From: Phoronis australis
Lineage: Eukaryota; Animalia; Phoronida
Reading direction: 5' to 3'
Length of the DNA: 47,545 nt
NCBI GenBank assembly: GCA_002633005.1
Contig: NMRA01000220.1
Span: 178,127-225,671 of the forward strand
In this document: piece by piece, positions 6,425 to 44,706 of the stretch
How positions within the stretch are numbered: the first letter of the stretch is position 1
How the letters are laid out: every line of letters starts with the position of its first letter
Notes under the pieces: model-generated
Seen by the model: the letters and a program-made list of their open reading frames with translations, nothing else
Databases searched by the model: none
Told to the model about the DNA's origin: nothing
Made by a program: the position numbers and the translations under genes

Positions 6425-6787
6425 TCATGGCCAACTACATTCTTCCATAAACGAAAACTGATCAACACCCGATCCGCGTTTCTTTGCCTCCTGCCTGCCG
6501 AACGCAAACACACTAGGAACAGCATCTGACCAATGCCTTAGTCTCATTTTCTGCCCTGGCATGACCTGTTTAGTAAGCCGGCATTCGAAATGCCGGCCGA
6601 AGACACGGAGAAGTTTCACGGCCTCATACTTGTTATTAACGGGATGCTTTTCATTCTTCACTGCCGCGAGCCTCTCCCGAAGCATTATGGGCTCTCGAGG
6701 AAATCGAGTAAACGATATACCCCACTTTCCTCGCCGCAGCTTCATCGTTCGCACAAGGGGGAACGATACACTACACCAAAGCGGCAC
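6425..6787 (-). pseudogene. Degenerate THAP domain (transposase N-terminus)
   Basis: MPLWCSV..SFTRFP..LRVFGRHFE..RL..DAVPSVF retains the FP, HF and AVP(T/S)xF boxes of THAP, but zinc ligands and the conserved Trp are mutated. Confidence 0.8.
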
Positions 6788-8368
6788 ACACTCTGCAAAA
6801 GAGCCACTGACTTCGCTGCGTCGTTTCTCACCTTCCTCACAGGTTAACGCGACACCTCTCGGCGACGTAAGATCGACTGTATACGAGATGATGTATATAT
6901 AGACCGATTAAGACGGTAAAAAAGACTAATTAAATCGGATGGCATTCTCCTTTAACGTACATCGAAGTAAACGTCATGTGACGCTGTGCCAAGTAATTGC
7001 ATGGTATTGCTGATGCATCACGTACACGCTAAAATTTTTTAAATGTGAAAATTTGGGAACATTTACATGTGGTAATTGACATAAAACTTATTTCTAATTC
7101 GATTGGTGATTATTCGAATAAGCAGCTATTAGCGTCGACAGAGTCCTTTAAATGTTGGCGAAAACAGTAGCCCCTGGCGATATCTTCGATGGGACCGTAG
7201 TTGACCGTTAGCACTGCACCTCAGCGTCGACGCTCCGCTGTTAAATCCTCTTGTTTACTGCAAAATTAACTGGTGCCGTTAACTTTGACCCAGGACTGAA
7301 GTTAACCGTTCTTACTAACCACAACTCCCCAAAACATCGACGGGTCGACTTTAAGGAAAACGTCTGAAATTGTGTAATAACTATGAGCAATTTTTGAGAA
7401 TCGAGATTACAAATAGAACACAATTCTTCACTAATTACAAACCTTTTGCGAATCTTTGAACAGTATCCTCACCCAAGCGTTTTAAAATGAAAATGTCGTG
7501 AGTTTATCTAGTGTCAAATGCATATTCATTCTTCATCTATCGTGGAAGCAATTGAAATTGGTATCGGAGTGATCCGCAAGAACGTACGTTCTTAGAGGCG
7601 GAAATTAAGTGGCACCCATATGTAGTCCTGTGCCAGACTGTAGGTGAATGGGTAACTAATCGACACCCGCAAAGTGAGCAAGTAAATGGTATTCATCAAA
7701 AGACTACTGGCTTCCACAAGGAAGGTTAAATATTACATAACCAGTTCTATTATATGATAAAATAAAATTATGAGCTATATCAATCTCTTCATTTCCTAGT
7801 GTGGCATTCATGTCATCAGACAGGCTACCAATTCAACTTCTGAATTGCCAAGGGCAAACCGCATCAAGCAAAACATAATCCATCGCTTTTACTGATCGAG
7901 TTGCTCCAAAATATTGCGGGACTTGAGAGAATATTTCCATGTATCGTGATATTGTCACCAGTTTGGGGAAAGTCCTTCAACAAAACTCACAACAAAATTT
8001 TTTGTGCAAGTCCAGTGCTACACTGCTAGAATGTGACGTCACAAACAAAATATTTTCACGCTTGTTTGACCACAAACAACCTCGCTGCGAATTTAGTACT
8101 TCCGAAAAATGTTTTGCTCATTTTAAGTGGCTATTAAGATCATGAAGAATTCTCATTATCCCTAAGATAACAAGAAAGTTGAGTAAACATGAATATCCCC
8201 AATCTGTTGATTATTGCCATGCTTCACAAAAACGACTATTAAAACAAGTACGCAACGCCCGCTTTCCTAACCACTTAGCTTAATTTATTAGAGAATGTGG
8301 CTAACGACTGTACAGCAGTGCACTACAGTTGTCTCTCCTGTTGAATTTATTTATTTCCGTGCATAAAT

Positions 8369-23687: not shown

Positions 23688-26600
23688 ATTAGCACAACTT
23701 CACCATGTAGACGATTCGTCTTTTGTGATCGCCGACTCCGACATTTCACATGTATTGCAAATATATCAAAGGATAAATCCCACTCAACTGTTAATTCAAT
23801 CTAGGGTTGCCCAAGAACACTCGTTCAACGCAAATAATTTAAGAAATAGAGTATAAAATCAATAATTTCCACAATGAATCGTCGCTGAAACAATTAAATT
23901 AAAGCTGGCGATGAACGTTTAAGTTACGCCTCGGTCAATTCTTTTTGGGGTCTGAAAACAAACATACTGACCTCGGTCATAAGCACATTTTTAGGTCCGG
24001 AAACCAAAAAAATTAACTTTGGTGAAAATCAATAATTGTTTATGATGCACCCATGGCTTGATTTTTAATCACTCCTTGAAAGTTCTCTTTAAATACACGT
24101 TGCATATGCAGCACTTTATGGATTTTTGTACAATTTCAATGAAATAATGACGCCTTGTTTTTGGTGTACATGTACGTATAAAATGCGCATCTGAAAATCT
24201 ACCATGAAGAACGTAAATAAAGCTAGAATTCGATGTCACGTCTCATCGAGATCAGTTTACGTATAATTTTACCACGCCATTGGGAATACCTGCACTGTAC
24301 AAGAGCCTTACTTTGCTTTAGCTAACTCGCGCATTGTGGAAGTACATTTATGTCTTTCACAAGTTCTTAACCGTTGCGAGCGAGTTATTCAACCGAGACA
24401 GTATTAATGTAGCCCCACTAGTGACCAATCTTATGTCGGTTTCGTCAAACTTTAGTCCACACACACGTGTAACCCGAATCGATCGTCAGTGCTTCAGTGC
24501 CGACCCCAGTGCCGACCTAGCTATCGATTGCTGACAGACCGTTGCTTGTTTGGTCTGAATCGGTCGGCGACCGATCACCGACTCGTTGCTGACCGGTCGG
24601 ACAAAAATTGGTTACATGTGCTTTGACATGGAAATTTTATCTTAAAGTTTCCAGTTTATTGATAGGCAGATGTTTTAAATGTAAAAATTTCTAGCGTTTA
24701 ATGTTGCCCATGTACGTGTAATTTGCCAATGAATTGGGTGAAAAATGACGAAATAAAATCGTTTATCCTAACAGGCACGTTAAAGTACTGTTTGACAGAT
24801 TAAACAAAAGAAACGAGCAAAGTAGGGGAAAATAGCAACATAACAAGCTTCTTAAAAAACCAGTGTGCAACCCAGTGGTGCAATATAAAACTAAGCTGAA
24901 CCATGTTGATGTTAATACTTAACAAGTTATGAATTATTCATCACTGAATTATTTAGGTTTTCAAGCTATTTCAAATGAGAGTTTGTGAAGGAGGGTGATA
25001 TTTTGTTAACAAATAGTTCGATGAAGTAGGAATTGTGTGGCAAAGAGAATGAGAAGGTAGGAGAAAATCTGCTTTACTTATCGTAGACGTATAGCAGACA
25101 TACAGTACTCGCCCCATATCACTATCAGTACTCACCACAGAGAGGTACACATCAAAGTTAATTTCTTCCAACTCTGGCCTCATGATTCACCAGTTTGCAG
25201 AAAAGTAAAATGTCATTTGCAATCACGAGCACTTCTGAAACAATTACAGTGAGCCCCGTAAAAATATTATGAAGAGTAAAGTTGTGTTAGATCATTTTGG
25301 CACATGAACTCCCTGAGTTAAAGATGATCAATATTTATTTTTTTGCGGAAAGCGCGGCGTTACAGCCGTTTTAAGTTATATCCACACATGATGTTGTTAA
25401 TGTCACTATTTTTAGTCCTTTGCGTGTGTGTGTATTCCAAGTACACCACACTCATCAGAGGTGGCATATCGTTCACCAGTCCCACATTTTCAGAATCCCA
25501 CGCTAACTTGATGAGGTCATCTTGTTTGACCCTAGATACCAGCATCGGCAAACATTTTGGTGATCATGGTTTATGTCATTATAGCCGCTTCATTAACACA
25601 GAGGAAAGATTACCTGAGGTGCAGCATTTACTTCATATGGACGTGTGTAATTACTATAGTTTTACACCTCAGAGGTTTGACTACAGTAGGACCATACGCT
25701 GATTAACCCCCACGGATGTTTTCAAAAATTCATGCTCGTCCTCGTCAATTTGGAAGTCGCGAAAGTTCATCGCCACTTTTAGGACTCGCCTGCGCTGGCG
25801 AAATTCATATTTCAGCTTGTGGGTTTGTGGCTTGTCGCCAAAAATGCCAAAGTTAGTAGAAAAATATTTTTTTTGGCGGAACAATAACAGAAGATGCACC
25901 GAAGGCCCCGCGGCAGGATGTACTTTCATAGCTTGCGCTGTTGGCGCATGAAAGTTGATTCAATACTCTATACAGCCTTGGCAGGGAATGTTGACTGAAT
26001 TGTTTTTCACGGTGTACCGCTGCTTTAAATCTCCAGGGCAATTCTTGCTCGGAAAACAGTGCAGTTGTTTCTGGAAAGCACTCACCGCTTGACGTCATGA
26101 CAGCTACTGGGTGCTGTGAATCTTAGAACTACTCTCAAAATGTAAACTGTTTATCATGTACGTAACACACCATGGATCACATTAAAATATTCATTACTAT
26201 TAGTCTGTGCTTTAGTCTCTCTAGGGCACGTTAGCAATGTTGAAAAGCCACGCCATTAATCATTGTGTTGTTTACGCGCTAGAGAGGTGATCGATGAAGA
26301 GCCACGAACCTGTGGATGTCGTCAAATAAACAATGTAGAATGCCAGGATTGGAAACAGTTGACACAGCGCCATGTTACGACGGTTTTCATTGGCTGCCTC
26401 TTGGGAATATTTAATCACGAGGTTGGTTAGCTTGCAAATGCGTACACGGCAAAGCAAGTGGTATACGACAGAACGTCGAATCTCTCTGATGAGCTGTCTA
26501 TTTAAATTGCTATATTATAAACGATTTGGGCTGCAAGGAATGTAACTGTCGATTCCTTATAATAAAAGCAAAATTAATTAACATTGGGCCCAGTCTTTCA

Positions 26601-27150
26601 CTTGGCATTCTCCTGGATCCTTGTGAATCAAAATTATGTTAGGGCCCATATCAGAACGGTGTTAGCCAAATGAAATCCCTTACGTACGGAGAGCCACACC
26701 TGAATCAATCTGGTATGGCCAGGTACCCGCATGAAGTTACTTACAGCGATTAGCGACAGCCAGTGCTCGAGCTCTGATATGGTGGACCTTTGATATTTTG
26801 CAAACGTCGAAACGGTAGTTTTCGCTAAGCCCCTTGGACTCTGCTTAACTAGGGGGGTGGGAAATCTGTGTACACAATGACGACTCTCAGCTCTGTTTCC
26901 AAGATCAGACCGAATTTGTATACCAGAAATGAGGATCATGGCCCTGACGGTTACTCACAATTAGAACGGGACCAAAATTCAGATGTAATGTGGTCCAGAA
27001 AGAGAACGTTCCCGCGTTACCCCCTGTCAAATTTTCAAACCGGGCTTGTTAAACGAGTGATAAAGCCTCATTACATACTCGGATTGAAATATTTAATCGG
27101 GAGAATGATCGACTTGAATATTTTGATCTGGTTGTATTTTGCGTGTTACT
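23688..27150 (+). repeat. Duplicated segment, copy A
   Basis: Colinear and near-identical (a few percent different by eye) to 31888-34533. Paired ORFs in the track (25343/32834, 25853/33264, 26868/34251). Contains 780 bp (24503-25282) absent from copy B. Confidence 0.95.
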
Positions 27151-29990: not shown

Positions 29991-31289
29991 AGTTCCCATA
30001 TTGTCAAAAATGAATATGTTTACCTTCTAAAGTTTTAGGGATACAGATATTGAAAACCCTCCTGCCGATTTTGTGATAGAAAAAAGTCCTCTGCAATGTT
30101 TTCCACTCCCAAAGTAAAAACTGCTGTATCAACGGGAGAAGATGTCATTTGGTAGAAATTTTGCAAAGGCATTTTTGTCGCAAATCGGCATTGTGGGAAA
30201 AATTCCTCTGAGCGTCATGTACCGTATGTACTTGTAACTTCAGCAGATGGGTAACTCTGTAAGCATTTCTATCGATGAACCTTTCTTGTCAATGTTTTCA
30301 GGAATGCGAGAATGTTTTTTATAGACAACTAATGCACTTAAATATTGACCCTAATACATTATACTGTCATGTTTGTTCTTATATTGAACCTTTGCATATG
30401 CTGGCAGCAAATTTTCGTTGAAGCAAATGGTATTAATTAAACACTACAGTTCTGTGAACTCGAGGCTTGTCACAAATTATTAAAAATTCTGCATATTGTA
30501 GATAAAAACACTGCAAACGAAAGTATCTTAAGTCTTTTTCATCTGACATATACCGTTCAGTAATTTCTTTACATCTGCAACATGAGTGACCCGTTTTGAG
30601 AAAGTGCCAATGTTTCCGCTAGTCCATCAAAGGGATTTAACAATACATGTCGCCAGGATTTTATTGCATATTTCTTTCTTGGACATCGTACCAGGAAACT
30701 TGCCGTCTCCTGCCACTCCATCTCTCCACTAAAGTATAAAAAAATCGTGTATCAATATCAGCATACACAAGCAGAGATGAAACGAGGTGACGTTTCTCTA
30801 GACTTCACACGCGGTCATAGTTTGTATCTGGAATGTCGCTCATATTGTCAAGATCCGCTGACATTCCAAACTTCAAAATCACAGGCCTTGGAATTCTAGC
30901 ATGTCTGAACACTTCGTGCAGTCTTAATGATTTTTTAACGAATCTCACCTAGTTTTAAATTTAACAACTTGTAAATTTCGCTGTTGTATTTACAGGCTTT
31001 ACGTCACAAAGCTTGGTAGTGCAGCTGGAAGTTGTTGCAGTGGTCCAATTTCTAGTAGTGACGCCAGATTCTTCAGCTGAAGTATGATTTACACAAGAGT
31101 CTACACATTTGCGAGACTTGTTAAATGACAATATCGTTTCGATCCTTTCAGCTACGTTGATCCGTATTAGCTCATTCAACATGGCAACAGTATTACTAGG
31201 TGGTCCAGTAGAAACACGACATTCAACGATGTCATCGTTTGACCCCAGAAGAAATAAATCGCTTGCTATTTCATCTAAAACTTCTTTAA

Positions 31290-31578
31290 AGGCGAAGGCA
31301 ACCTTTTTCCATGTCATTTTGAGCTGAAATAAGGTTGGTTGGTTATCCTAGGCATATTTTCCACTTAATTACAGCTTTTCGTAATTTTATTAATTACTCG
31401 TCCGCTACTCCGGAAGTGACGTTTTAGGAGGCAAGCATTTCGCGCCAATTTCTTTTCATATAGTCTGAATGTGAGAGCTGCCGAGTCAGTCATTGTTCTA
31501 CCTCGGTTGTGTTGAGTTCCGTCGTCGTTTGCTTTCATTTACTAGTCAGTCAACATGCCACACTGTTGCTGCGTACAA
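31290..31578 (+). mobile_element. Second copy of the left end of the 34537 Kolobok element, running into an assembly gap
   Basis: TTAA at 31286-31289, then 289 bp matching 34537 onward with about 8 substitutions, including the ATGCCACACTGT THAP start. Stops at the N run. Confidence 0.93.
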
Positions 31579-31621
31579 NNNNNNNNNNNNNNNNNNNNNN
31601 NNNNNNNNNNNNNNNNNNNNN
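31579..31621. other. Assembly gap (43 N)
   Basis: Run of n characters. Confidence 1.
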
Positions 31622-31887: not shown

Positions 31888-34533
31888 ATTAGCACACCTT
31901 TACCATGTAGACGATTCGTCTTTTGTGATCGCCGACTCCGACATTTCACATGTATTGCAAATATATCAAAGGATAAATCCCACTCAACTGAGTGTTAATT
32001 CAATCTAGGGTTGCCCAAGAACACTCGTTCAACGCAAATAATTTAAGAAATAGAGTACAAAATCAATAATTTCCACAATGAATCGTCGCTGAAACAGTTA
32101 AATTAAAGCTGGCGATGAACCTTTAAGTTACGCCTCGGTCATTATTCTTTTTGGGGTCTGAAAACAATCATACTGACCTCGGTCATAAGCACATTTTTAG
32201 GTCCGGAAACCAAAAAAATTAACTTTGGTGAAAATCAATAATTGTTTATGATACACCCATGGCTTGATTTTTAATCACTCCTTGAAAGTTCTCTTTAAAT
32301 CCACGTTGTATATGCAGCACTTTATGGATTTTTGTACAATTTCAATGAAATAATGACGCCTTGTTTTTGGTGTACATGTACGTATAAAATGCGCATCTGA
32401 AAATCTGCCATGGAGAACGTAAATATAGCTAGAATTCGATGTCACGTCTCATCGAGATCAGTTTACGTATAATTTTACCACGCCATTGGGAATACATGCA
32501 CTGTACACGAGCCTTACTTTGCTTTAGCTAACTCGCGCATTGTGGAAGTACATTTATGTCTTTCACAAGTTCTTAACCCCCGAGACAGTATTAATGTAGC
32601 CCCACTAGTGACCAATCTTATGCCGGTTTCGTCAAACTTTAGTCCACACACACGTGTAACCCGAATCGATCGTCAGTGCTTCAGTGCCGTGTGTTAGATC
32701 ATTTTGGCACATGAACTCCCTGAGTTAAAGATGATTAAAATTTATTTTTTTTTACGGAAAGCGCGGCTTTACAGCCGTTTTAAGTTATATCCACATATGA
32801 TGTTGTTAATGTGAACTATTTTTAGTCCTTTGCGTGTGTGTGTATTCCAAGTACACCACACTCATCAGAGGTGGCATATCGTTCACCAGCCCCACAGTTT
32901 CAGAATCTCACGCTAACTTGATGAGGTCATCTTGTTTGACCCTAGATACCAGCATCAGCAAACATTTTGGTGATCATGGTTTATGTCATTATAGCCGCTT
33001 CATTAACACAGAGGAAAGATTACCTGAGGTGCAGCATTTATTTCATATGGACGTGTGTAATTACTATAGTTTTACACCTCAGAGGTTTGACTACAGTAGG
33101 ACCATACGCTGATTAACCCCCACGGATGTTTTCAAAAATTCATGCTCGTCCTCGTCAATTTGGAAGTCGCGAAAGTTCATCGCCACTTTTAGGACTCGCC
33201 TGCGCTGGCGAAATTCACATTTCAGCTTGTGGGTTTTGTGGCTTGTCGCCAAAAATGCCAAAGTTAGTAGAAAAATGTTTTTTTTGGCGGAACAATAACA
33301 GAAGATGCACCGAAGGCCCCGCGGCAGGATGTACTTTCATAGCTTGCGCTGTTGGCGCGTGAAAGTTGATTCAATACTCTATACAGCCTTGGCAGGGAAT
33401 GCTGACTGAATTGTTTTTCACGGTGTACCGCTGCTTTAAATCTCCAGGGCAATTCTTGCTCGGAAAACAGTGCAGTTGTTTCTGGAAAGCACTCACCGCT
33501 TGACGTCATGACAGCTACTGGGTGCTGCGAATCTTAGAACTACTCTCAAAATTTAAACTGTTTATCATGTACGTAACACACCATGGATCACATTAAAATA
33601 TTCATTACTATTAGTCTGTGGTTTAGTCTCTCTAGGGCACGTTAGCAATGTTGAAAAGCCACGCCATTAATCATTGTGTTGTTTACGCGCTAGAGAGGTG
33701 ATCGATGAAGAGTCACGAACCTGTGGATGTCGTCAAATAAACAAAGTAGAATGCCAGGATTGGAAACACATTGGCTGCCTCTTGGGAATATTTAATCAGG
33801 AGGTTGGTTAGCTTGCAAATGCGTACACGGCAAAGCATCTGGTATACGGCAGAACGTCGAATCTCTCTGATGAGTTGTCTAATTAAATTGCTATATTATA
33901 AACGATTTGGGCTGCAAGGAATGTAACTGTCGATTCCTTATAATAAAAGCAAAATTAATTAACATTGGGCCCAGTCTTTCACTTGGCATACTCCTGGATC
34001 CTTGTGAATCAAAATTATGTTAGGGCCCATATCAGAACGGTGTTAGCCAAGTGAAATCCCTTACGTACGGAGAGCCACACCTGAATCAATCTGGTATGGC
34101 CAGGTACCCGCATGAAGTTACTTACAGCTATAGTAGCCACAGTCAGTGCTCGAGCTCTGATATGGTGGGCCTTTGATATTTTGCAAACGTCGAAACGGTA
34201 GTTTTCGCTAAGCCCCTTGGACTCTGCTTAACTAGTGGGGTGGGAAATCTGTGTACACAATGACGACTCTCAGCTCTGTTTCCAAGATCAGACCGAATTT
34301 GTATACCAGAAATGAGGATCATGGCCCTGACGGTTACTCACAATTAGAACGGGACCAAAATTCAGATGTAATGTGGTCCAGAAAGAGAACGTTCCCGCGT
34401 TACCCCCTGTCAAATTTTCAAACCGGGCTTGTTAAACGAGTGATAAAGCGTCATTACATACTCGGATTGAAATATTTAATCGGGAGAATGATCAACTTGA
34501 ATAATTTGATCTAGTTGTATTTTGCGTGTTACT
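31888..34533 (+). repeat. Duplicated segment, copy B (possible second haplotype)
   Basis: Starts at attagcac like copy A and ends at gcgtgttact directly against the Kolobok TTAA. Lies just after the N gap. Confidence 0.95.
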
Positions 34534-34801
34534 TAAAGGCGAAGGCAACCTTTTTCCATGTAATTTTGAGCTAAAATAAGGTTGGTTGGTTATCCTAGAC
34601 ATATTTTCCACTTAATTACAGCTTTTCGTAATTTTATTAATTACTCGTCCGCTACTCCGGAAGTGACGTTTTAGGAGGCAAGCATTTCTCACCAATTTCT
34701 TTTCATATAGTCTGACTGTGAGAGCTGCCGAGTCAGTCATTGTTCTACCTCGGTTGTGTTGATTTCCGTCGTCGTTTGCTTTCATTTACTAGTCAGTCAA
34801 C

Positions 34802-35591
34802 ATGCCACACTGTTGCTGCGTACCAGGATGTACTAATTATCGGCTCACGCGCGCTTTGGGAGTACCTTTGTATCGCTTTCCGATGGATGACACACTTCGC
34901 CGTACTTGGCTCGTTCGTGTGAAGAACGCAGCGTTACCCGTCCACGCAACGTACAAAGCAGTGGAGAATTACCGTGTTTCAGTGTGGCAAGCACTTTCTG
35001 CCGTCCGATTACGAAAGGGATTTGTACGCTGAACTGATGAAGGTCCCTGCGAAACAACGTCTGAAGAAGGATGCCATTCTGTCTGTGTTGATTCCCGGCA
35101 GTGCCCCGTCGCCACCCCCGAGAAGTGCGTTTTTGAAGCGAGAAGCCTCGCGAGCTGTGGCCAGTACAGTGACTGGAGCCAGTGGAGGCACTTCATCTAC
35201 TGTCACCCGTGCCTCCGAACGTACCCCAGAGCGTGCAATTCCTGGAACCAGTAGTGATTCGCCCTGTGCTGTTTTCTCCAGCCCAGAGCCTCTAAGCAGC
35301 CCTGCAGCGATATTGAGTAGTGGGAGTGATTACAGGCTCAGTTCGACACCCAGTGAAGAGGACAGTTCGTCGTCCAGTGAACAGATCGGTGAGCCAAACT
35401 TTGATAAGTTTATTGTGGACTTGTCTAAAGTGTTGGAGCTATTTAGAAGGTGCCAGGTGTGTGGCGAGGGAGTCACACGACACGGTGTAAGCAGTTTGGG
35501 TGCTCAGGTCACCATCCAGTGGGAGTGTGTCGCGGGACACTCTGGCAAGTGGGACAGTTGTTCCTCTGTCCGTGGTATGCCGGAGGTTCAC
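34802..35591 (+). pseudogene. THAP-domain transposase, frameshifted and truncated
   Basis: MPHCCCVPGC..LYRFP..W..YRV, frameshift (apparent extra tcag at 34979-34982), then CGKHF..RLKKDAILSV completes a C2CH THAP finger. Followed by a Ser-rich linker and KFIV..LELF..CQVC..C.AGH..W.S zinc-finger-like block. No DDE core remains. Confidence 0.88.
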
Positions 35592-35899
35592 TTAACCATG
35601 TCCAGTAGTGGCTTGGCCTCGTCGAACTCTGAACAGCACAAGCATTCCATTGAGGTAGGCATAACAACGCACACAGTGCATTTGCACCAAGATGTGTCAC
35701 CACGTCTGTCCTCAGTAGCCGCCTCGTTTCTCTCAACAGCTGCCTGTGCCTGTGCGTACTCTGCCTCGTTATACTCGGGCTCAAACATGTACCCACCCAC
35801 TGAATGTCCGTGAAAAAATTCCTCGTCACCACTGCTGTGAACAAGGTCTCCGTCACTCACACTACTGTCACTGTGATACGGGTCACCGACTCCAGCCAT
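35588..35899 (-). pseudogene. KolX / P2X7 ballast-like Cys-rich protein, N-terminal fragment
   Basis: gaaaATGgct start, acidic N-terminus, YMFEPEY, then WCKCTVCVVMPTSMECLCCSE, the WCxCxxCxxMxTxxECxCCxE pattern of the P2X7 C-terminal zinc-binding region. Truncated at the internal deletion. Confidence 0.85.
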
Positions 35900-37462
35900 T
35901 TTCAGCTTACAACACACTAAACAATCCCTAAATCCAACGTAGTTGAGTTCTCTACTAACCTATCTTGCCGCAGAATACTCGCCGATGGAAAGTGGTTGCG
36001 ACAATTGTTGAAAAACAGCACAAAACAAAAGTAGAATAGAACAGATTCGCACGGTAAAGTCAACGCCAAGTGGCGGGAAATGCTTGCCTCCTAAAACGTC
36101 ACTTCCGGAGTAGCGGACGAGTAATTTATAAAATTACGAAAAGATGTAATTAAATGGAAAATATGTCTAGGATAACCAACCAACCTTATTTTAGCTCAAA
36201 ATGACATGGAAAAATGTTGCCTTCGCCTTTAAGTGTCATATCATCGTAGATTGATTCCACGGAGGATTTTACAACTGCTTGTCCGTCTCTGACAACTGTG
36301 AAACATAACACAAAAGTGCCGATTGAGGACTCACACATGAGGACACACAGGACGCAAGAACTGTTTTTTTAGTTCTGATAGTCGGACACTATCGTGTGTT
36401 TACGACCGTCGAAAATTCAAATGGAATGCAAATGACCAAATTATTAAAACGTGTAATGAATTTATTTTGAAATTATTAAGGCCACGAGCATTCTTTTGTT
36501 CGTCTTTTGTAATTAAAAACAAACACTAAGACCGCTGTTCGGAACTTTCAGAATGTAGCACCTCCGTCAGACATAACATTTTTGACGTTGTTGTGACGTA
36601 TATGATAAGCAATCCTTTCAGATTTTGTTGTTATTTGCTGACCAACGATGAACAAACTGAGTCCTGTACGAGACTCGTCAATGCACATCATTAAACGAGT
36701 TTTCATCTTCCCGTTACGTATTATTCCCTTGTACCGTTAATTCCCAACATCACGATCTCATCTAGTTTCACGTTGGATTCATCTTAACAAACTAGCCTAT
36801 TGTGTTGATACACAATGCTGTGGTAGTAAGGAGTGTAGTACACACTCCTTGGTGGTAGTAAGCAAGTCACAGCTTACAATCACACAAAGGAATCAGCAAA
36901 TGAAAGTTAAGTCTAATGTCTCTGAAAGTAAATCGTTTCGAAGTTTTTGGTGATAGTATTTCATACAAAAACACCTTCTTCACTTTATTTGTTGAACGTC
37001 GTTTGCAGTAGCCTCAGGCGAGCTGTTTACAACATAATTGCTGGATTACATGAGCTTATCAAATGAGCCCAAACAATGAGAGAGATGGACTACACAAAAA
37101 TTGGTTTTCCAATGTTTTTCTTCTTGCTATCGCTGTCAAACTGATAACGACACGGCTATATCCCGACTAGCCAATCATTGAAATCGGGATACTCGTCCCA
37201 CAGCGCGGGTGCGTAACACGAGGATCGCATGCCGCAAGCCGCCGCATGCAGATGCCTTTAATAGTTTGTACTCGCGAGCTTATAAATAGTAATAGGGAGA
37301 GAGGGAGGGAGGGTAGTGTATCGGGAAATGGCTATTGGAAACGTGAACCAAAAATATCTATTCGAAATGGCCAAGCAACCTGATTTTCGACAGTGCGGAG
37401 AAAAGTCGTAGGTTTTCGGATTGTGATTTATTTTATAACCCTATGATGGCTCTTTGTTTCAG

Positions 37463-37602
37463 CAACTGAAGGTTCAAAGATGGAGGTACAGCTAATAAAA
37501 TATCTGATGAACGGCTATGAAATCAGTGCAAGACCCGTGGAAGAATTCAGTGATGTAGTGAACGTCACGATGGATGTCGCACTGAATCAGATATTTGACC
37601 TA
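37463..37602 (+). CDS. nAChR exon (140 nt): TEGSKMEVQLIKYLMNGYEISARPVEEFSDVVNVTMDVALNQIFDL
   Basis: Acceptor ttgtttcag, donor gtaagt. N-terminal helix, RPV motif and beta1 strand of nAChRs. Phase 1 start, phase 0 end. Confidence 0.93.
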
Positions 37603-37958
37603 GTAAGTTATAAAAAAGTCACGTTGTACGGCTATAGTCCTTGACAAACAGATGTCCAAAATGTCCTTTCCACGCACCGATAACGTAGAACGTTACGGTG
37701 TCTAACAACTTTCGTCAGTTTGGTACTCACTTCATTTGACTCGGTTGTAACTCGCAAAATTCAGTCGAATTCGTCGCAACGTCGACTTTGTACTACATGT
37801 AGGTCACCAAAGGAAATATGCAAGCATACATGTAGCACGTACTTTCACTCACGAGGATTGTGCGTTGCGCATTGTCTGCTTGGGCTCATGGGCGAATGTA
37901 TACAGAAGTTTGACATATTTCTGCTCCATTTACATACGTTGTTTGTCTTCTTTTGCAG

Positions 37959-38003
37959 GACGAAAAGAATCAGATTCTGAAATCTTTGATTTGGCTCAGA
38001 CTG
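37959..38003 (+). CDS. nAChR exon (45 nt): DEKNQILKSLIWLRL (loop D Trp)
   Basis: Acceptor cttcttttgcag, donor gtaggt. DEKNQ motif and the 45-nt length typical of this nAChR exon. Confidence 0.95.
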
Positions 38004-38642
38004 GTAGGTGCAAGGCATTTGCATAATGATAAAACGTCAAAACATTTTTAAATGTCTTAAAAGACTTATCAGACTGCTTTAAACGGTGGTAGGATTCACT
38101 AAAACATTGACTCATTATGTTTAGGCCTAATTCATTTAAATCAAGTTAAACATATCCACTCGCGATTGATGACTTAAAAATTCCAAAATCAACCAACTTA
38201 TATTTACCGTGTATGCGCGTATTTACGCACGTGTGCCAATATGTAAAACTGTGCCTACATCCGGAATTTTGTTAGTTTCCAAGCAACAACCCATGGAAAC
38301 AGCATTGGGCCTCCTAGTTTTGGTTCTTGGTATCTGTTTCAATGTAGAAAACGTTCTCAGAAACTTCGTGAAATTTGTCGTGCAACTTTTTATTAGCGAA
38401 ACGATGGCGACTGCATATTCGCAGGGGTCAAACCCGTGCTTTGCCTCCGGTGCAGATAGTTATTGGCGCCTGCAGATTTCTGGTGAAACGCATTCAGGAT
38501 CGAATTGATGATAACGATGAGAACATGGTGGGCTGTGGTATTCCGATGGATCGGGTAAATTATTGCAAATATGCATCAATATGTACCAAGTTATTGTATA
38601 TCTTCATAAACAAGGCACAGAGTGCCATATAGCTAACACTCA

Positions 38643-38810
38643 CAGGGGCGGATCCAGGGCTTAGAAGGGGGCAGGCTAGAGTATTACCCAGTATAACCCA
38701 GGAAATTGCCCGACAGATATTCGTACAGTACCCCCCGAACTGCTAAATGGAGTCTGGGAAAATTTTATGGGGGCCATGGCCCCCTTGGCTCCCCTCTAAA
38801 TCCGCCACTG
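38643..38810. mobile_element. CAGGGGCGGAT-type MITE in nAChR intron, 5-bp TSD
   Basis: CAGGGGCGGATCCAG...CTAAATCCGCCACTG termini. ACTCA repeated at 38638-38642 and 38811-38815. Confidence 0.8.
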
Positions 38811-39875
38811 ACTCATGGGAAGACACTTGTCCCTGTAAATCGGATTAATGATCCATCGCCTGCGATTGTCTTAATTTTATTTCAGCGAAACACCATAAAA
38901 GCTCGTTCGCTTGTTTTTGACTTTAATTTTCTGGGGCCACTGAAACTTAGCCGACATGTTTTGAAATCAAGGCCGCAACCGCTAATGTGCTTTTGAATTC
39001 CATTTGCCTACTGCTGCAATTATAAAGTTTGACGTCCACCAAGTCAAGCGACTCATGCTCATTAAATTCAGATCGTATGTTTTTATTAATGAGAAGATGT
39101 CGCTCACCAATTTTTAGGACAATTTCCGCTGTGGCCCACGAGCCTAGTTGGAAATAATGTAATACCGCGTTCATACGTGGACTTTACATTTGCAGGTCGT
39201 CTGTTCGGAAGGGAGATCCACTTCTTATAACGAGCCTTCATGAAGGCATCCGATCAACATCTATGGTTTGGCTAGTGATTACCTTAACATTAAAACACGG
39301 AATGTTAATATTTTGACCAATCACGTGCGATCGTGGGCGAACAGAGCCTATACACAAACGATTGAGGTCTGAATCTTACAGTATGAAGATAGGTTTGCCG
39401 TCTGATTTTGGGACAGGCGACAAAAAGACAGACCATACTTCTGACAAGCATTTTCGGACGTCCGATGTGCCCTCGGATCTAAAGCGTTAAACGGTCAACA
39501 AGCGCAAAATTTGTTATTTTGTGTCAGAGCCATACCATAGTTACATAGACAATTAAAAGTGAATCTCAAATATGACCACTAGAATGGGTTTTGATTTAGT
39601 TTGACTTTCTCATAGAATGGCTGCTAAATCGGCAACGGCACCCTTTCGTAGGAGAGTCTGTGATTGAAAGGCACACTTTCATTGGGAAACTGGTCGTGAA
39701 AAAGTCACTCTTCTTAGCAGCACGTCCCGCATACCTCTTCTTTATGGGAGTACTCCCCTCAAGCAGTCATTCAAAGTGCAGTTGCTAAAGAGACACCTTT
39801 TGGAGAACTCTAAGACTACAGTATCATGGACACATTCGAGATTATTCACATATCCTTGCATTCTTTTGGGTACAG

Positions 39876-39985
39876 AATTGGAGAGACGAAACGTTGAAGT
39901 GGAACACTTCGGCTTACGAGGGTCTTGACTTAATCACGTTGCCGTCTTCCCGAGTATGGTTGCCAGACTTGGTTGTTTGGAACAC
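39876..39985 (+). CDS. nAChR alternative exon 4a (110 nt): NWRDETLKWNTSAYEGLDLITLPSSRVWLPDLVVWN(T)
   Basis: Acceptor ttttgggtacag, donor gtaagt. Open frame, phase 0 to 2, W.D..L.WN and WxPD loop-A motifs. Confidence 0.93.
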
Positions 39986-40032
39986 GTAAGTGTGACTTCC
40001 AGCTTTATGACTGGTCGAAGTTTTTGTTGCAG

Positions 40033-40142
40033 AATTGGATCGATTACGGTCTGAAATGGAATTCTTCAAAATACGAGGGATTGAAAGACATCACTATTGC
40101 ATCCACTAGAGTGTGGCGCCCAGACCTAACTTTGTGGAATAA
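40033..40142 (+). CDS. nAChR alternative exon 4b (110 nt): NWIDYGLKWNSSKYEGLKDITIASTRVWRPDLTLWN(N)
   Basis: Acceptor tttttgttgcag, donor gtaagt. Same length and phases as 4a, 23/37 identical residues, no stops. Confidence 0.93.
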
Positions 40143-41842
40143 GTAAGTCCGCGAAAATGCATCCGTCATCGGTCGACAGGATACATGCTTAAAGTTTTGA
40201 TCCAGAAGTACGGTAACAAGACGTAGAAGTAGCTTTAGCACCCTGTGTACAACCTTAAAGCCCTACCCTGTTCGTTGTACCTTCAATTCTATAGCAATAA
40301 CTGAAAACCAAAATGCTTTCCATTTATTGGTTGCTTTAGTGATCAACAATATAGCCATACACAATTAAGCAGCTATGCTTTAATGCAAGTGTATTAAAAG
40401 TACATTTCTGCTGTACTGGCACTCAACCTCATGAAATACAACTAGATTAAAAATAATAATTTCAAGGATGACAGATAACCGCACAGGATTCACCTAACGG
40501 GCACATTATGAAGCATTAAGTTTCGCGACCGAATTCCTGCGAAACACATAAGTTTAGCGTTTTTACAGACTCAGGAGGCACAGAACTGTTCTCATTGGGG
40601 TCTGCCTAGCATACGTCAATGAACTTTTCACCTTTTTTTCACTCTAAAAAATGAAAAATTTTGCTTTATTTCACAAAAAACCTTACAGATGAGCACCGAA
40701 ACTTTATTTTGGGTAGTTGCATATTTGAACTTTCACGCCTACTGAAAAGCAAGGTAGGAGCAAAAACCACAAAACTGGAACTTTTCACCTCAAAACCACC
40801 TGCCGATGTGTGACTTACAAGCTCCAAAAATATGGTCCAATTCTGGGTTGTTTGAAGGTTACCTGAAATCGCAGCAGATTTCTCAATCACTACGCAGAAA
40901 TACAACTAGACTGTAGTGGACTGCCATCTTGAAGAATAGTGGATCTACAGCCGAGCAAGTGCAAAGTCTACCCCAAGAGCCTCAAATCTGACCAAATCCT
41001 AGAATTTATTTTTTGGCACTGTAAATTGGCCGCAGCTGCAGCCTCACTGTTTATTGCAAATTCAGCTCTGTTTCATGTGGCGTCCGGGAGACGCAAATAT
41101 AGCATATTTTAAAAACACGTGCACCGACCTCAGCCACGTGATTCACGTTTTTGTGAATTTGAACTTTGAAACTTGAATACGATACAGCTGCAGTTTTTCA
41201 TTGAGCTGTCTTGGGATGATTACTAAAGAAAGCAAGCACGTTTAGCTAAAGATGTTGTAGCGTCGATTCTTGAGATTGGGATCATATTAATTTTCTGTAT
41301 ATTATGGATTTCTCCACCTCCAAAAATACTGAATTAAACCATAGACAGCAGATGCACAACTCCAACATTTTCTTGCGTAGTATCCTAGAGGAAGCGCCAC
41401 TCTCTTAAATTACTAATTTCCCGTTAGTGTATTGTGACGGAAAATCGTCGCATCTATTTTACTGTCCAGTACAACGATAAAAATAATTTCGGCATTGAAA
41501 CGCTGTTTAAAGTCTTTCAATAATAGAATTGTTGGTATCGTGAATTTTTTTAGCACCAGACCACACAGCAGCCGACCAGGATTAGCAGACGACATACTTG
41601 CCGGAAGTAAACTTGCTAATTTTGCCAGGTGTCGCTAGTGAATAATGACGTCTGGGCTTCTTCGTAAGATCACAGATTTGGTCCACTGAAAATATACGGA
41701 GTTGGCGGACCTTGTACTCATAGTCTATGATTAAACAGACGCACAAATGTTCACGCGTTTATTAGCAATGACAAGCGTATAACGCTTGTGTGCGTTTGAA
41801 AAAAAATTCCACTGAATATTGAAGATGATACGTTTACTCTAG

Positions 41843-41978
41843 CGCTGCGGATACGTTCGCTCTTGGCCAAGACACACAAGTAAAGATCAAAAGCGACGGC
41901 TCCGTTACTTGGAACACGCCTGCCACGATAGAGAGCACATGTGCGGTTGATGTCAAGTACTTTCCATTTGATGAACAG
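41843..41978 (+). CDS. nAChR exon (136 nt): AADTFALGQDTQVKIKSDGSVTWNTPATIESTCAVDVKYFPFDEQ
   Basis: Acceptor tttactctag, donor gtaagg. Phase 2 start matches both 4a and 4b. Loop E and most of the Cys-loop (YFPFD). Confidence 0.95.
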
Positions 41979-43597
41979 GTAAGGCTGCGTTCCGTATCTA
42001 GAGACCATTTCTTGTGAGAAAAGGGCAACCATGCAAGTATGTACGATGGCAAAAGATTTTTCTCGCATTATACCTTTCTTCGGGACTACACAGCCACTTT
42101 CCTTGCTCCTTTTCTCGGTTTATTTTGTGTGCTTGCAAGCAGAATACTCACAATATACAAAATGCTTAATGAGTCTCCGAATACGTATTCTAGGGTAATG
42201 CCAAAGTCCTATTTTTTATTCAATTCGACACGTTAATCATCGTATCCAATTAGTATCTGTTCAGCTCGTGAAAGTCGAAAATCCAGCCCAGATTTAATTT
42301 CTTGTTCAAATTTTCAAAAAATGAAAAGCAAAAATTATAGTTATAAATGCAATAAGCGCATTTTAGCATTGTCACTTGTGACGCGTTATACAGTGCCAAT
42401 CACCTGATTCACCGAAGATGAAGTTAAATCTAGGTCAGCTGCCGGAGTCGTGCCACCTTCGGGAGCCATTTCAGACAACGTTAGTATGATCTCGAAACTA
42501 CGTAGAAATTTTTGGAGGGACAATTTTTACCAATTTGAAGTTTTCGGGAACTCATGGCGTCTTTTCTCACGCTCGCGCTGGTGCGACCGAGAATTTCCAA
42601 GATTTCGGCATTTCTTGAGTTCAGTTCTGACTAGAGCAGCGACTCGAGTCTCGCATTGTGTCGGCTTACACGTGAGCTTCATCCAGTCTGACACAAAACA
42701 TACAGAGTTTGATATTTCCGTGGCCTAGTAATGAAAAAATGCGCAATCTTTCCAAGCGATACTAAAGACAATTGATTCTCTCGTCGTAGCAGGTGGGTTC
42801 TTTACTGACATTTTGATCTCAACTCCCAATGACAGAGTTTTCAAATCGAGGCTAATTCCAGTTTTCAACCTTGTCCATTGCGAAACGTTCCCGTGGTGGT
42901 TTTGTCCGGCATCAACTTGCAAGCCAACTGTCTATCACCGTCCAAAAAGGCGAGGAAGCCAAATGGAACTACTTATAACGGATAACATAGAACCGGAACC
43001 TAGCGCATATATTTTCGACATATTTCTTCGCGTAAAAATGTAATTTTAGCCAGTGTTTGATTGTGAACACGTAGCTAATCCGGTACATTGCTGGGCTCTA
43101 TACAAAAGAAACTTCAGCGTTTCCGATAAATATGTTTCTTGAAGACAGCGCTTCTTGTACAAATCTATTGCCCTAAAATGGCCCTAGTTTCAAATGTAAG
43201 AAACAATGGCCTTTGCATTGGGGGGGGGGGGGGGNGGGATTTTTGTACGGAATTTGACTGGACAGGTTGCGCGTGTTCATGCCAGCTTTTCAAAAAGTGC
43301 CGATTTTCATTGGAAAATAACAACTGTTTGTATCCAAATATTTTTTTAAACCCTTTTGTATTTGCCATAGTTTTAAAACAACTATATTTCTGATTGGGGT
43401 ACACGAAGCCTTAAGCTTTTGGTTCAAGTGTTTAGATAAGGATCACTATTTTAACTTTGTGGCCTATCAACTTCAATATTCGTAGCAACGGCCAACTGAC
43501 CTTTCCATCAACTACGTCTCACGTGTTATTACGTCTTCGAATACACATAGTTATTGAGATTGAAAAAAATATTGTATAATCACGACATTGAAGCTAC

Positions 43598-43701: not shown

Positions 43702-43795
43702 ACTTGCATTCTCAAGTTCGGTTCGTGGTCATTACATGGCTTGCAACTCGATTTATTTTCAAAGAACGACACTGGTGACACGGCTTCGTTCGTTG
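43702..43795 (+). CDS. nAChR exon (94 nt): TCILKFGSWSLHGLQLDLFSKNDTGDTASFV(G)
   Basis: Acceptor tttcctttcag, donor gtaaga. Second Cys-loop cysteine and loop B (FGSW). Confidence 0.95.
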
Positions 43796-44569: not shown

Positions 44570-44706
44570 GTAACGGTGAGTGGGAGTTAGTAAAGTTTCC
44601 GGTCAAGAAAAATGTGGTGTTCTACACATGTTGTCCGGAACCTTATCATGACTTGTCCTACGAAATAGTCATCAGGAGGAGGTCATTGTACTACGTGTTC
44701 AATTTG
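44570..44706 (+). CDS. nAChR exon (137 nt): [45 protein letters not shown]
   Basis: Acceptor tgttttcag, donor gtgagc. NGEW, loop C YxCC..PY.D and pre-TM1 RRR.LYY. Visible in ORF 44560..44751. Confidence 0.96.

Follow-up and report, generated by a model that had tools for sequence, protein, structure and literature searches.

The window analysed here, that is, the whole stretch of 47,545 nt of Phoronis australis contig NMRA01000220.1, carries on its forward strand the exons encoding the ectodomain of a nicotinic acetylcholine receptor (nAChR) subunit (Table 1). Exons 2 to 7 yield an open 220-residue ectodomain of the PF02931 family with a Cys loop, loop C displays vicinal cysteines, and the transmembrane exons fall outside the window, past exon 7. 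The place of exon 4 is occupied by two homologous exons, 4a and 4b, overlain by a spliced antisense RNA. The other introns of the gene measure 356-2029 nt.

Table 1. Coordinates of the receptor exons and of the antisense transcript in the window.
Feature	Position	Strand	Evidence and remarks
Candidate exon 1	33583..33640	+	Sequence only: 19-codon signal-peptide-like stretch, phase 1, weak donor
Second copy of candidate exon 1	starts at 26172		Sequence only; in duplicated block
Exon 2, 140 nt	37463..37602	+	Junction 37602>37959 in 9/8/2 reads (X1/X2/X3); Pfam PF02931; 5' end from acceptor sequence
Exon 3, 45 nt, loop D	37959..38003	+	Junction reads on both sides
Antisense exon 2, ~530 nt	39520..40050	-	Depth up to 135/87/0; 3' end ragged
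Exon 4a, 110 nt, alpha1 residues 59-95 (beta2-beta3 loop to loop A)	39876..39985	+	Junction reads
Spacer, 47 nt (4a donor, branch region, 4b acceptor)	39986..40032	+	No listed junction removes it
Exon 4b, 110 nt	40033..40142	+	Junction reads
Antisense intron, 812 nt	40051..40862	-	Canonical GT..AG; joint 40050^40863 in 94/57/0 reads
Antisense exon 1, ~200 nt	40863..41065	-	5' end approximate; peak minus-strand depth 108/84/about 1, <1 beyond 41065
Exon 5, 136 nt, loop E plus greater part of Cys loop	41843..41978	+	Junctions from 4a and 4b; Pfam; PDB matches
Exon 6, 94 nt, loop B	43702..43795	+	Splice sites, open frame, tblastn with relatives; no Pfam match alone
Exon 7, 137 nt, loop C (vicinal cysteines)	44570..44706	+	Sequence, tblastn, Pfam

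Comparison of the ectodomain with 390 proteins retrieved vertebrate alpha10/alpha9 and invertebrate alpha9/10-like subunits as the best matches (45-49%), among them those of Lingula (XP_013406738.1) and Ptychodera (XP_070543627.1), and two quick ectodomain trees placed them in the same group as the gene under study. The first, built on the 56 rows left from 169 stretches after removal of near-duplicates, assigned an SH-aLRT of 98 to a nine-row alpha9/10 group; the second, with 53 hand-picked rows, gave 91 for a 23-row group. The gene sat on a long branch in both trees, the rows of neither included a named vertebrate alpha7, and the insect alpha4-like row fell each time in another clade. Together with the loop-C cysteines, these results support the earlier assignment to an alpha-type, alpha9/10-like subunit, and the gene is likely a divergent, long-branched member of this class, whose identity outside vertebrates is itself uncertain according to the available text of a review (PMC8634148). 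Orthologue searches retrieved none (best match 49%), and a word search with exon 5 produced seven candidates without a match.

Exons 4a and 4b are both open in frame 0, run from phase 0 to phase 2, and possess their own CAG acceptor and GTAAGT donor. They share 23/37 residues and 65/110 nt, third codon positions being alike in 14 of 36, and chance resemblance is excluded by a shuffle control in which the best of 100,000 permutations reached 11/37. Each exon matches positions 56-91 of PF02931 above the curated cut-off. The net charge is -2 for 4a and +1 for 4b, and both keep an N-x-S sequon. Within the spacer, a putative branch A at 40010 is separated by 25 nt from the 4a donor and by 23 nt from the end of the acceptor. 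Translation revealed that either exon alone keeps the frame open from exon 3 into exon 5, and that a premature stop arises when both are included (inside 4b), when neither is, or when both are included along with a retained spacer. Exon lengths, phases, splice sites, identity, charges, sequons, and the candidate branch A were thus all reproduced as the earlier note had described them, as was its claim that inclusion of both exons or neither disrupts the frame. A search of the window uncovered no third copy of exon 4. Around the pair, docker/selector-type repeats did not exceed short chance matches, long-range pairings were not above chance, and Rfam returned no family for 37900-42000. A hairpin between the spacer and the start of 4b was considered and rejected (z -1.1, equalled by 20 of 200 shuffles and 20 of 508 GC-matched windows).

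Exon usage was scored in three stranded raw-read RNA runs with the same species label (X1, X2, and X3), 18-19% of each being used; a further small contig set (X4) did not extend over the pair. All four junctions expected from alternative use of the two exons between the same flanking exons were read, on the sense strand in every one of the 46 instances. In X1, X2, and X3, respectively, exon 3 was joined to 4a (38003>39876) in 2, 5, and 0 reads (7 in total) and to 4b (38003>40033) in 4, 4, and 5 (13), and exon 5 was joined to 4a (39985>41843) in 4, 3, and 2 reads (9) and to 4b (40142>41843) in 2, 6, and 9 (17). These counts are small, and mates and reads spanning two junctions may have been counted twice. 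By contrast with the 46 single-inclusion reads, neither the 4a to 4b junction (39985>40033) nor the double skip (38003>41843) reached the listing threshold of at least three reads from two starts in a run, so that double inclusion and skipping are absent or rare within this limit, under which up to two 4a to 4b reads per run could be hidden. In the 60-nt bin spanning the spacer, sense depth (0, 0.37, and 1.23) did not exceed what its 13 nt of 4b explain. All three samples used 4b and at least some 4a, the 4a share of junction reads amounting to 6/12 in X1, 8/18 in X2, and 2/16 in X3. The exon pair is therefore real and spliced in an either-or fashion, at modest read depth, as the earlier note had predicted from the letters alone. 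On the basis of the RNA, we infer that one gene likely gives rise to two forms of the receptor ectodomain at the protein level.

The same reads contained four variants inside 4a and 4b, three of which alter a residue, at 39942 (4a, position 81), 40054, and 40096 (4b, positions 66 and 80). Two of these three shift toward the residue of the other exon. Gene conversion between 4a and 4b was dropped as their source because the bases between variants remain 4a-like.

Collectively, these data are best explained, with a probability that we put at about 0.8, by an old tandem duplication followed by either-or splicing into two ectodomain forms, with exclusivity probably imposed by the spacer and backed by nonsense-mediated decay (NMD). 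Duplication of a 110-nt exon ending in loop A would have left two intact copies, of which one at a time is spliced into the mRNA of the alpha9/10-like subunit. Across ~25 nt, joint assembly of U1 on the 4a donor with U2 on the branch point of 4b would be impossible, and any frameshifted transcripts that leaked through would be removed by NMD.

A steric lock by the 47-nt spacer is plausible from the arrangement of its signals, given that every spacer adenosine, the putative branch point included, lies less than 50 nt from the 4a donor. A donor-to-branch distance of ~50 nt is the limit proposed in vertebrates for joint assembly of U1 and U2, as set out in the accessible text of PMC7969005. Similar distances, below ~50 nt, separate the homologous exons of alpha-tropomyosin, OGDH 4a/4b (PMC7969005), and C. 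elegans egl-15 and let-2 (PMC4165533), as far as these sources are available. In those systems, the same texts report mapped branch points or introns shorter than 40 nt, whereas here the spacer measures 47 nt and the branch point is predicted. They further differ from the present pair in exon length, because 4a and 4b are not multiples of three and NMD could do the same job. Indeed, with exons of 3n+2 nt, double inclusion shifts the frame, so that steady-state RNA cannot separate a steric block from NMD. Exclusivity might exist at steady state only, the spacer being spliceable and the double-inclusion transcripts being destroyed through their early stop. The spacer does have a consensus donor and a usable acceptor, and the available part of the C. 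elegans study describes introns spliced down to ~40 nt, shorter than this spacer, and 14 of 19 non-3n clusters that rely at least partly on NMD (PMC4165533). On the other hand, the 356-2029 nt introns of this gene are unlike those of a compact-intron genome, albeit no measure of the species minimum, and the distance from branch point to donor is far below the vertebrate limit, which is likewise not this species' own (PMC7969005, accessible text). We consider NMD without a steric lock possible yet doubtful; the size of the other introns makes us lean toward a steric role of the spacer, short of proof.

The comparison of substitutions between 4a and 4b that the earlier note had suggested gave a pS of 0.84, which is saturated, versus a pN of 0.29 (Fisher p 6e-6 on rounded counts), a pattern indicating that purifying selection has acted on both copies. 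Saturation of the synonymous sites implies that the duplication is old, and alignable sequence has been lost from the introns around the two copies (17/47 and 14/47). This record bears on the alternative that one of the exons is a leaky, decaying duplicate without a role and that a single receptor form matters. The low 4a share in X3, the non-synonymous variants segregating in both exons, and the fact that the pair was confirmed in no relative would all suit such a scenario. Against it, frames, pairs of splice sites, and family-conserved residues have stayed intact in both exons despite synonymous saturation, and in X1 and X2 roughly every second junction read comes from 4a. We therefore regard decay of one copy as very unlikely and retain two maintained exons as the preferred reading.

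With residues numbered according to muscle alpha1 matches (residues 2-36 of the exon corresponding to 60-94), both exons place a tryptophan at the loop-A position of Tyr93, and none of 342 homologous stretches has tryptophan there. The closest relative of each exon is the other one (23/37), any of 308 full-length homologous stretches reaching at most 20/37 in a set rich in bird and fish alpha10. The shared Trp93 and this order of similarity argue that the duplication likely followed the divergence of the gene, being specific to its lineage and later than its Tyr93-to-Trp change. Unlike the alpha9/10-like relatives, the gene combines a long branch with tryptophan for Tyr93, and the exon pair is absent from their annotated isoforms: no alternative at the place of exon 4 appeared in 20 annotated isoform segments from six groups of non-orthologous relatives (21 proteins, one without the segment).

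Tandem duplicated, mutually exclusive nicotinic exons that change functionally relevant regions are likewise found in insects, where alpha4 carries exons 4/4' (loop E and Cys loop) and alpha6 carries exons 3a/3b (loop D) and 8a/8b/8c (TM2), according to the accessible portions of PMC2064938, PMC8505678 (Table 1 therein), and PMC1919356. In contrast to these, as far as the same portions describe them, the phoronid case comprises a 110-nt beta2-beta3/loop-A exon of an alpha9/10-like subunit, its two copies lying 47 nt apart and being overlapped by an antisense RNA. The pair does not belong to the insect alternatives, since it covers alpha1 residues 59-95 in a gene of another clade. The independent origin put forward in the earlier note is supported by the mutual proximity of 4a and 4b and by the fact that the alternatives of insect alpha4 and alpha6 are other exons. 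A search of titles and abstracts of mostly open-access papers found no duplicated loop-A nAChR exon, and a term search of the available text of a lophotrochozoan nAChR survey found splicing in a reference title only (PMC6896357). With the pair, the nicotinic receptors gain a further site of mutually exclusive splicing, confirmed by RNA and outside insects, and the searches turned up no described alternative for this exon.

The swap between 4a and 4b alters 14 residues, at alpha1 positions 61, 63, 64, 69, 71, 76, 77, 80, 81, 83, 87, 91, 92, and 95. Residues 61-83 take in the main immunogenic loop as well as parts of the subunit interface and of the surface contacted by peptide ligands. From these roles, the two forms are predicted to diverge less in the acetylcholine pocket than at the subunit interface and on the outer surface, with effects on assembly, choice of partner, gating, or peptide ligands and sensitivity to them expected over effects on the agonist pocket. 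W86, P88, and D89 of the W-x-P-D motif are identical in both exons, as is residue 93. The earlier suggestion that the swap switches ligand is weakened because the pocket residues W86, D89, and 93 do not change between exons. What results is a natural exchange of 14 residues round an unchanged pocket, a clean test of the beta2-beta3 loop and the flanks of loop A.

The aromatics of loops B, C, and D appear present in the alignment, and the canonical aromatic box is broken at loop A, where both exons encode Trp93. The loop-A tyrosine hydroxyl is crucial for acetylcholine recognition as stated in the available text of PMC4006026, and Y93W alters the binding pocket and the speed of opening in that of PMC3923797. 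Both isoforms are therefore probably atypical in the same manner, owing to Trp93, which makes the shared substitution of interest in itself. Like the antisense RNA described below, it escaped the earlier note. A second deviation close to the binding site was noted in loop B (exon 6), where W-S-L-H-G takes the place of the W-x-Y/F-x-G of relatives.

The minus strand of the region yields a real, spliced, and apparently non-coding RNA. Its acceptor lies 18 nt inside 4b, and its second exon covers these 18 nt, the spacer, and all of 4a. The longest ATG frame in that exon spans 39 aa, Rfam produced no match for the RNA, and no loose read ends at the first exon pointed to a further one. An unspliced form was sought and minus-strand depth over 40106-40225 was zero. 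In X1 and X2, where each sense junction position had 6-9 reads, the antisense joint was read 94 and 57 times, respectively; in X3 it was never read. Linked variants at 25-46% indicate that the RNA is made from both haplotypes.

The antisense joint could also stem from a genomic deletion of 812 bp at a repeat of 7 nt, or from an artefact of assembly, inasmuch as seven letters fit both of its sides and the joint is known from RNA reads only. Its ends are nonetheless canonical on the minus strand, and both haplotypes show the joined form only, yet the same runs contain 4b sense reads. Since a deletion on both haplotypes would remove 4b, splicing is favored, and we deem a deletion or artefact extremely improbable. 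The spliced antisense RNA is provisionally taken as a separately controlled transcript.

Several further features were noted along this transcript. Over 37871-39505, low minus-strand depth extends through intron 3 to exon 3; seen in X1 and X2 and absent from X3, it suggests antisense read-through. A 40-nt insertion at 40958 in the first antisense exon (9 and 8 reads), with a sequence found nowhere else in the window, is probably part of a second haplotype together with a 6-nt deletion at 40904. Just upstream of the end of antisense depth, a TATA-like stretch and two CACGTG boxes occupy 41095-41141 of the minus strand.

The position of the antisense RNA raises the question of whether it sets exon choice, with transcription from a promoter in intron 4 slowing the sense polymerase or altering chromatin and thereby favoring 4a. 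The RNA lies precisely over the cassette, both haplotypes produce it in spliced form, and its junction reads far outnumber those of the sense strand, as given above. The 4a share was also higher in the runs with antisense RNA (6/12 and 8/18) than in the one without (2/16; Fisher p 0.026 on all reads). This association is weak: p was 0.08 by distinct starts, 0.11 and 0.22 for the two junction sides, and 0.18 with counts halved. Besides, three samples are involved, of tissue not given, and X1 and X2 share alleles that differ from those of X3, so that two genotypes are probably compared. Bulk RNA does not imply co-occurrence of both RNAs in the same cells. The mature antisense RNA would cover the splice sites of 4a in addition to the 4b acceptor, so that a rise in 4a is not what plain masking would lead one to expect; an effect, if there is one, would more probably be kinetic or act via chromatin, as with asFGFR2. 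The latter, at FGFR2 IIIb/IIIc, offers a precedent, and the available text of PMC8005942 describes it and the ZEB2 NAT as, likewise, intragenic antisense long RNAs at alternatively spliced regions. For these two RNAs, the same text reports a demonstrated effect on splicing, whereas the phoronid locus provides overlap and a weak three-sample association. We found no antisense RNA at nAChR alternative exons in the mostly open-access main texts searched. Control of exon choice by the antisense RNA is, on these grounds, unlikely; if true, it would constitute a compact invertebrate counterpart of asFGFR2. The fuller proposition, in which the antisense RNA spliced at the cryptic acceptor within 4b would be the switch of a sterically locked pair, favoring 4a wherever it is transcribed, so that its promoter would select the loop A of a Trp93 receptor whose ligand properties would be unusual, we hold to be quite unlikely.

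Elsewhere in the window, a block of ~2.7 kb occurs in two copies, at 23688-27150 and 31888-34533, which align in three pieces at 95-98% identity, flank an N gap (31579-31621), and both contain the candidate exon 1. It may reflect either tandem duplication, giving two first exons, or a haplotype that was not collapsed. The presumed first intron hosts an element at 34531-36234 with 167-nt terminal inverted repeats (95%) that encloses a minus-strand frame resembling P2RX7_C (Pfam E 4.6e-5); one end of the element is copied again at 31286-31576. A THAP-domain frame on the minus strand at 6425-6907 (Pfam E 5.6e-6) is probably of DNA-transposon origin, and a long imperfect CAG/CAT triplet repeat extends over 2023-2224.
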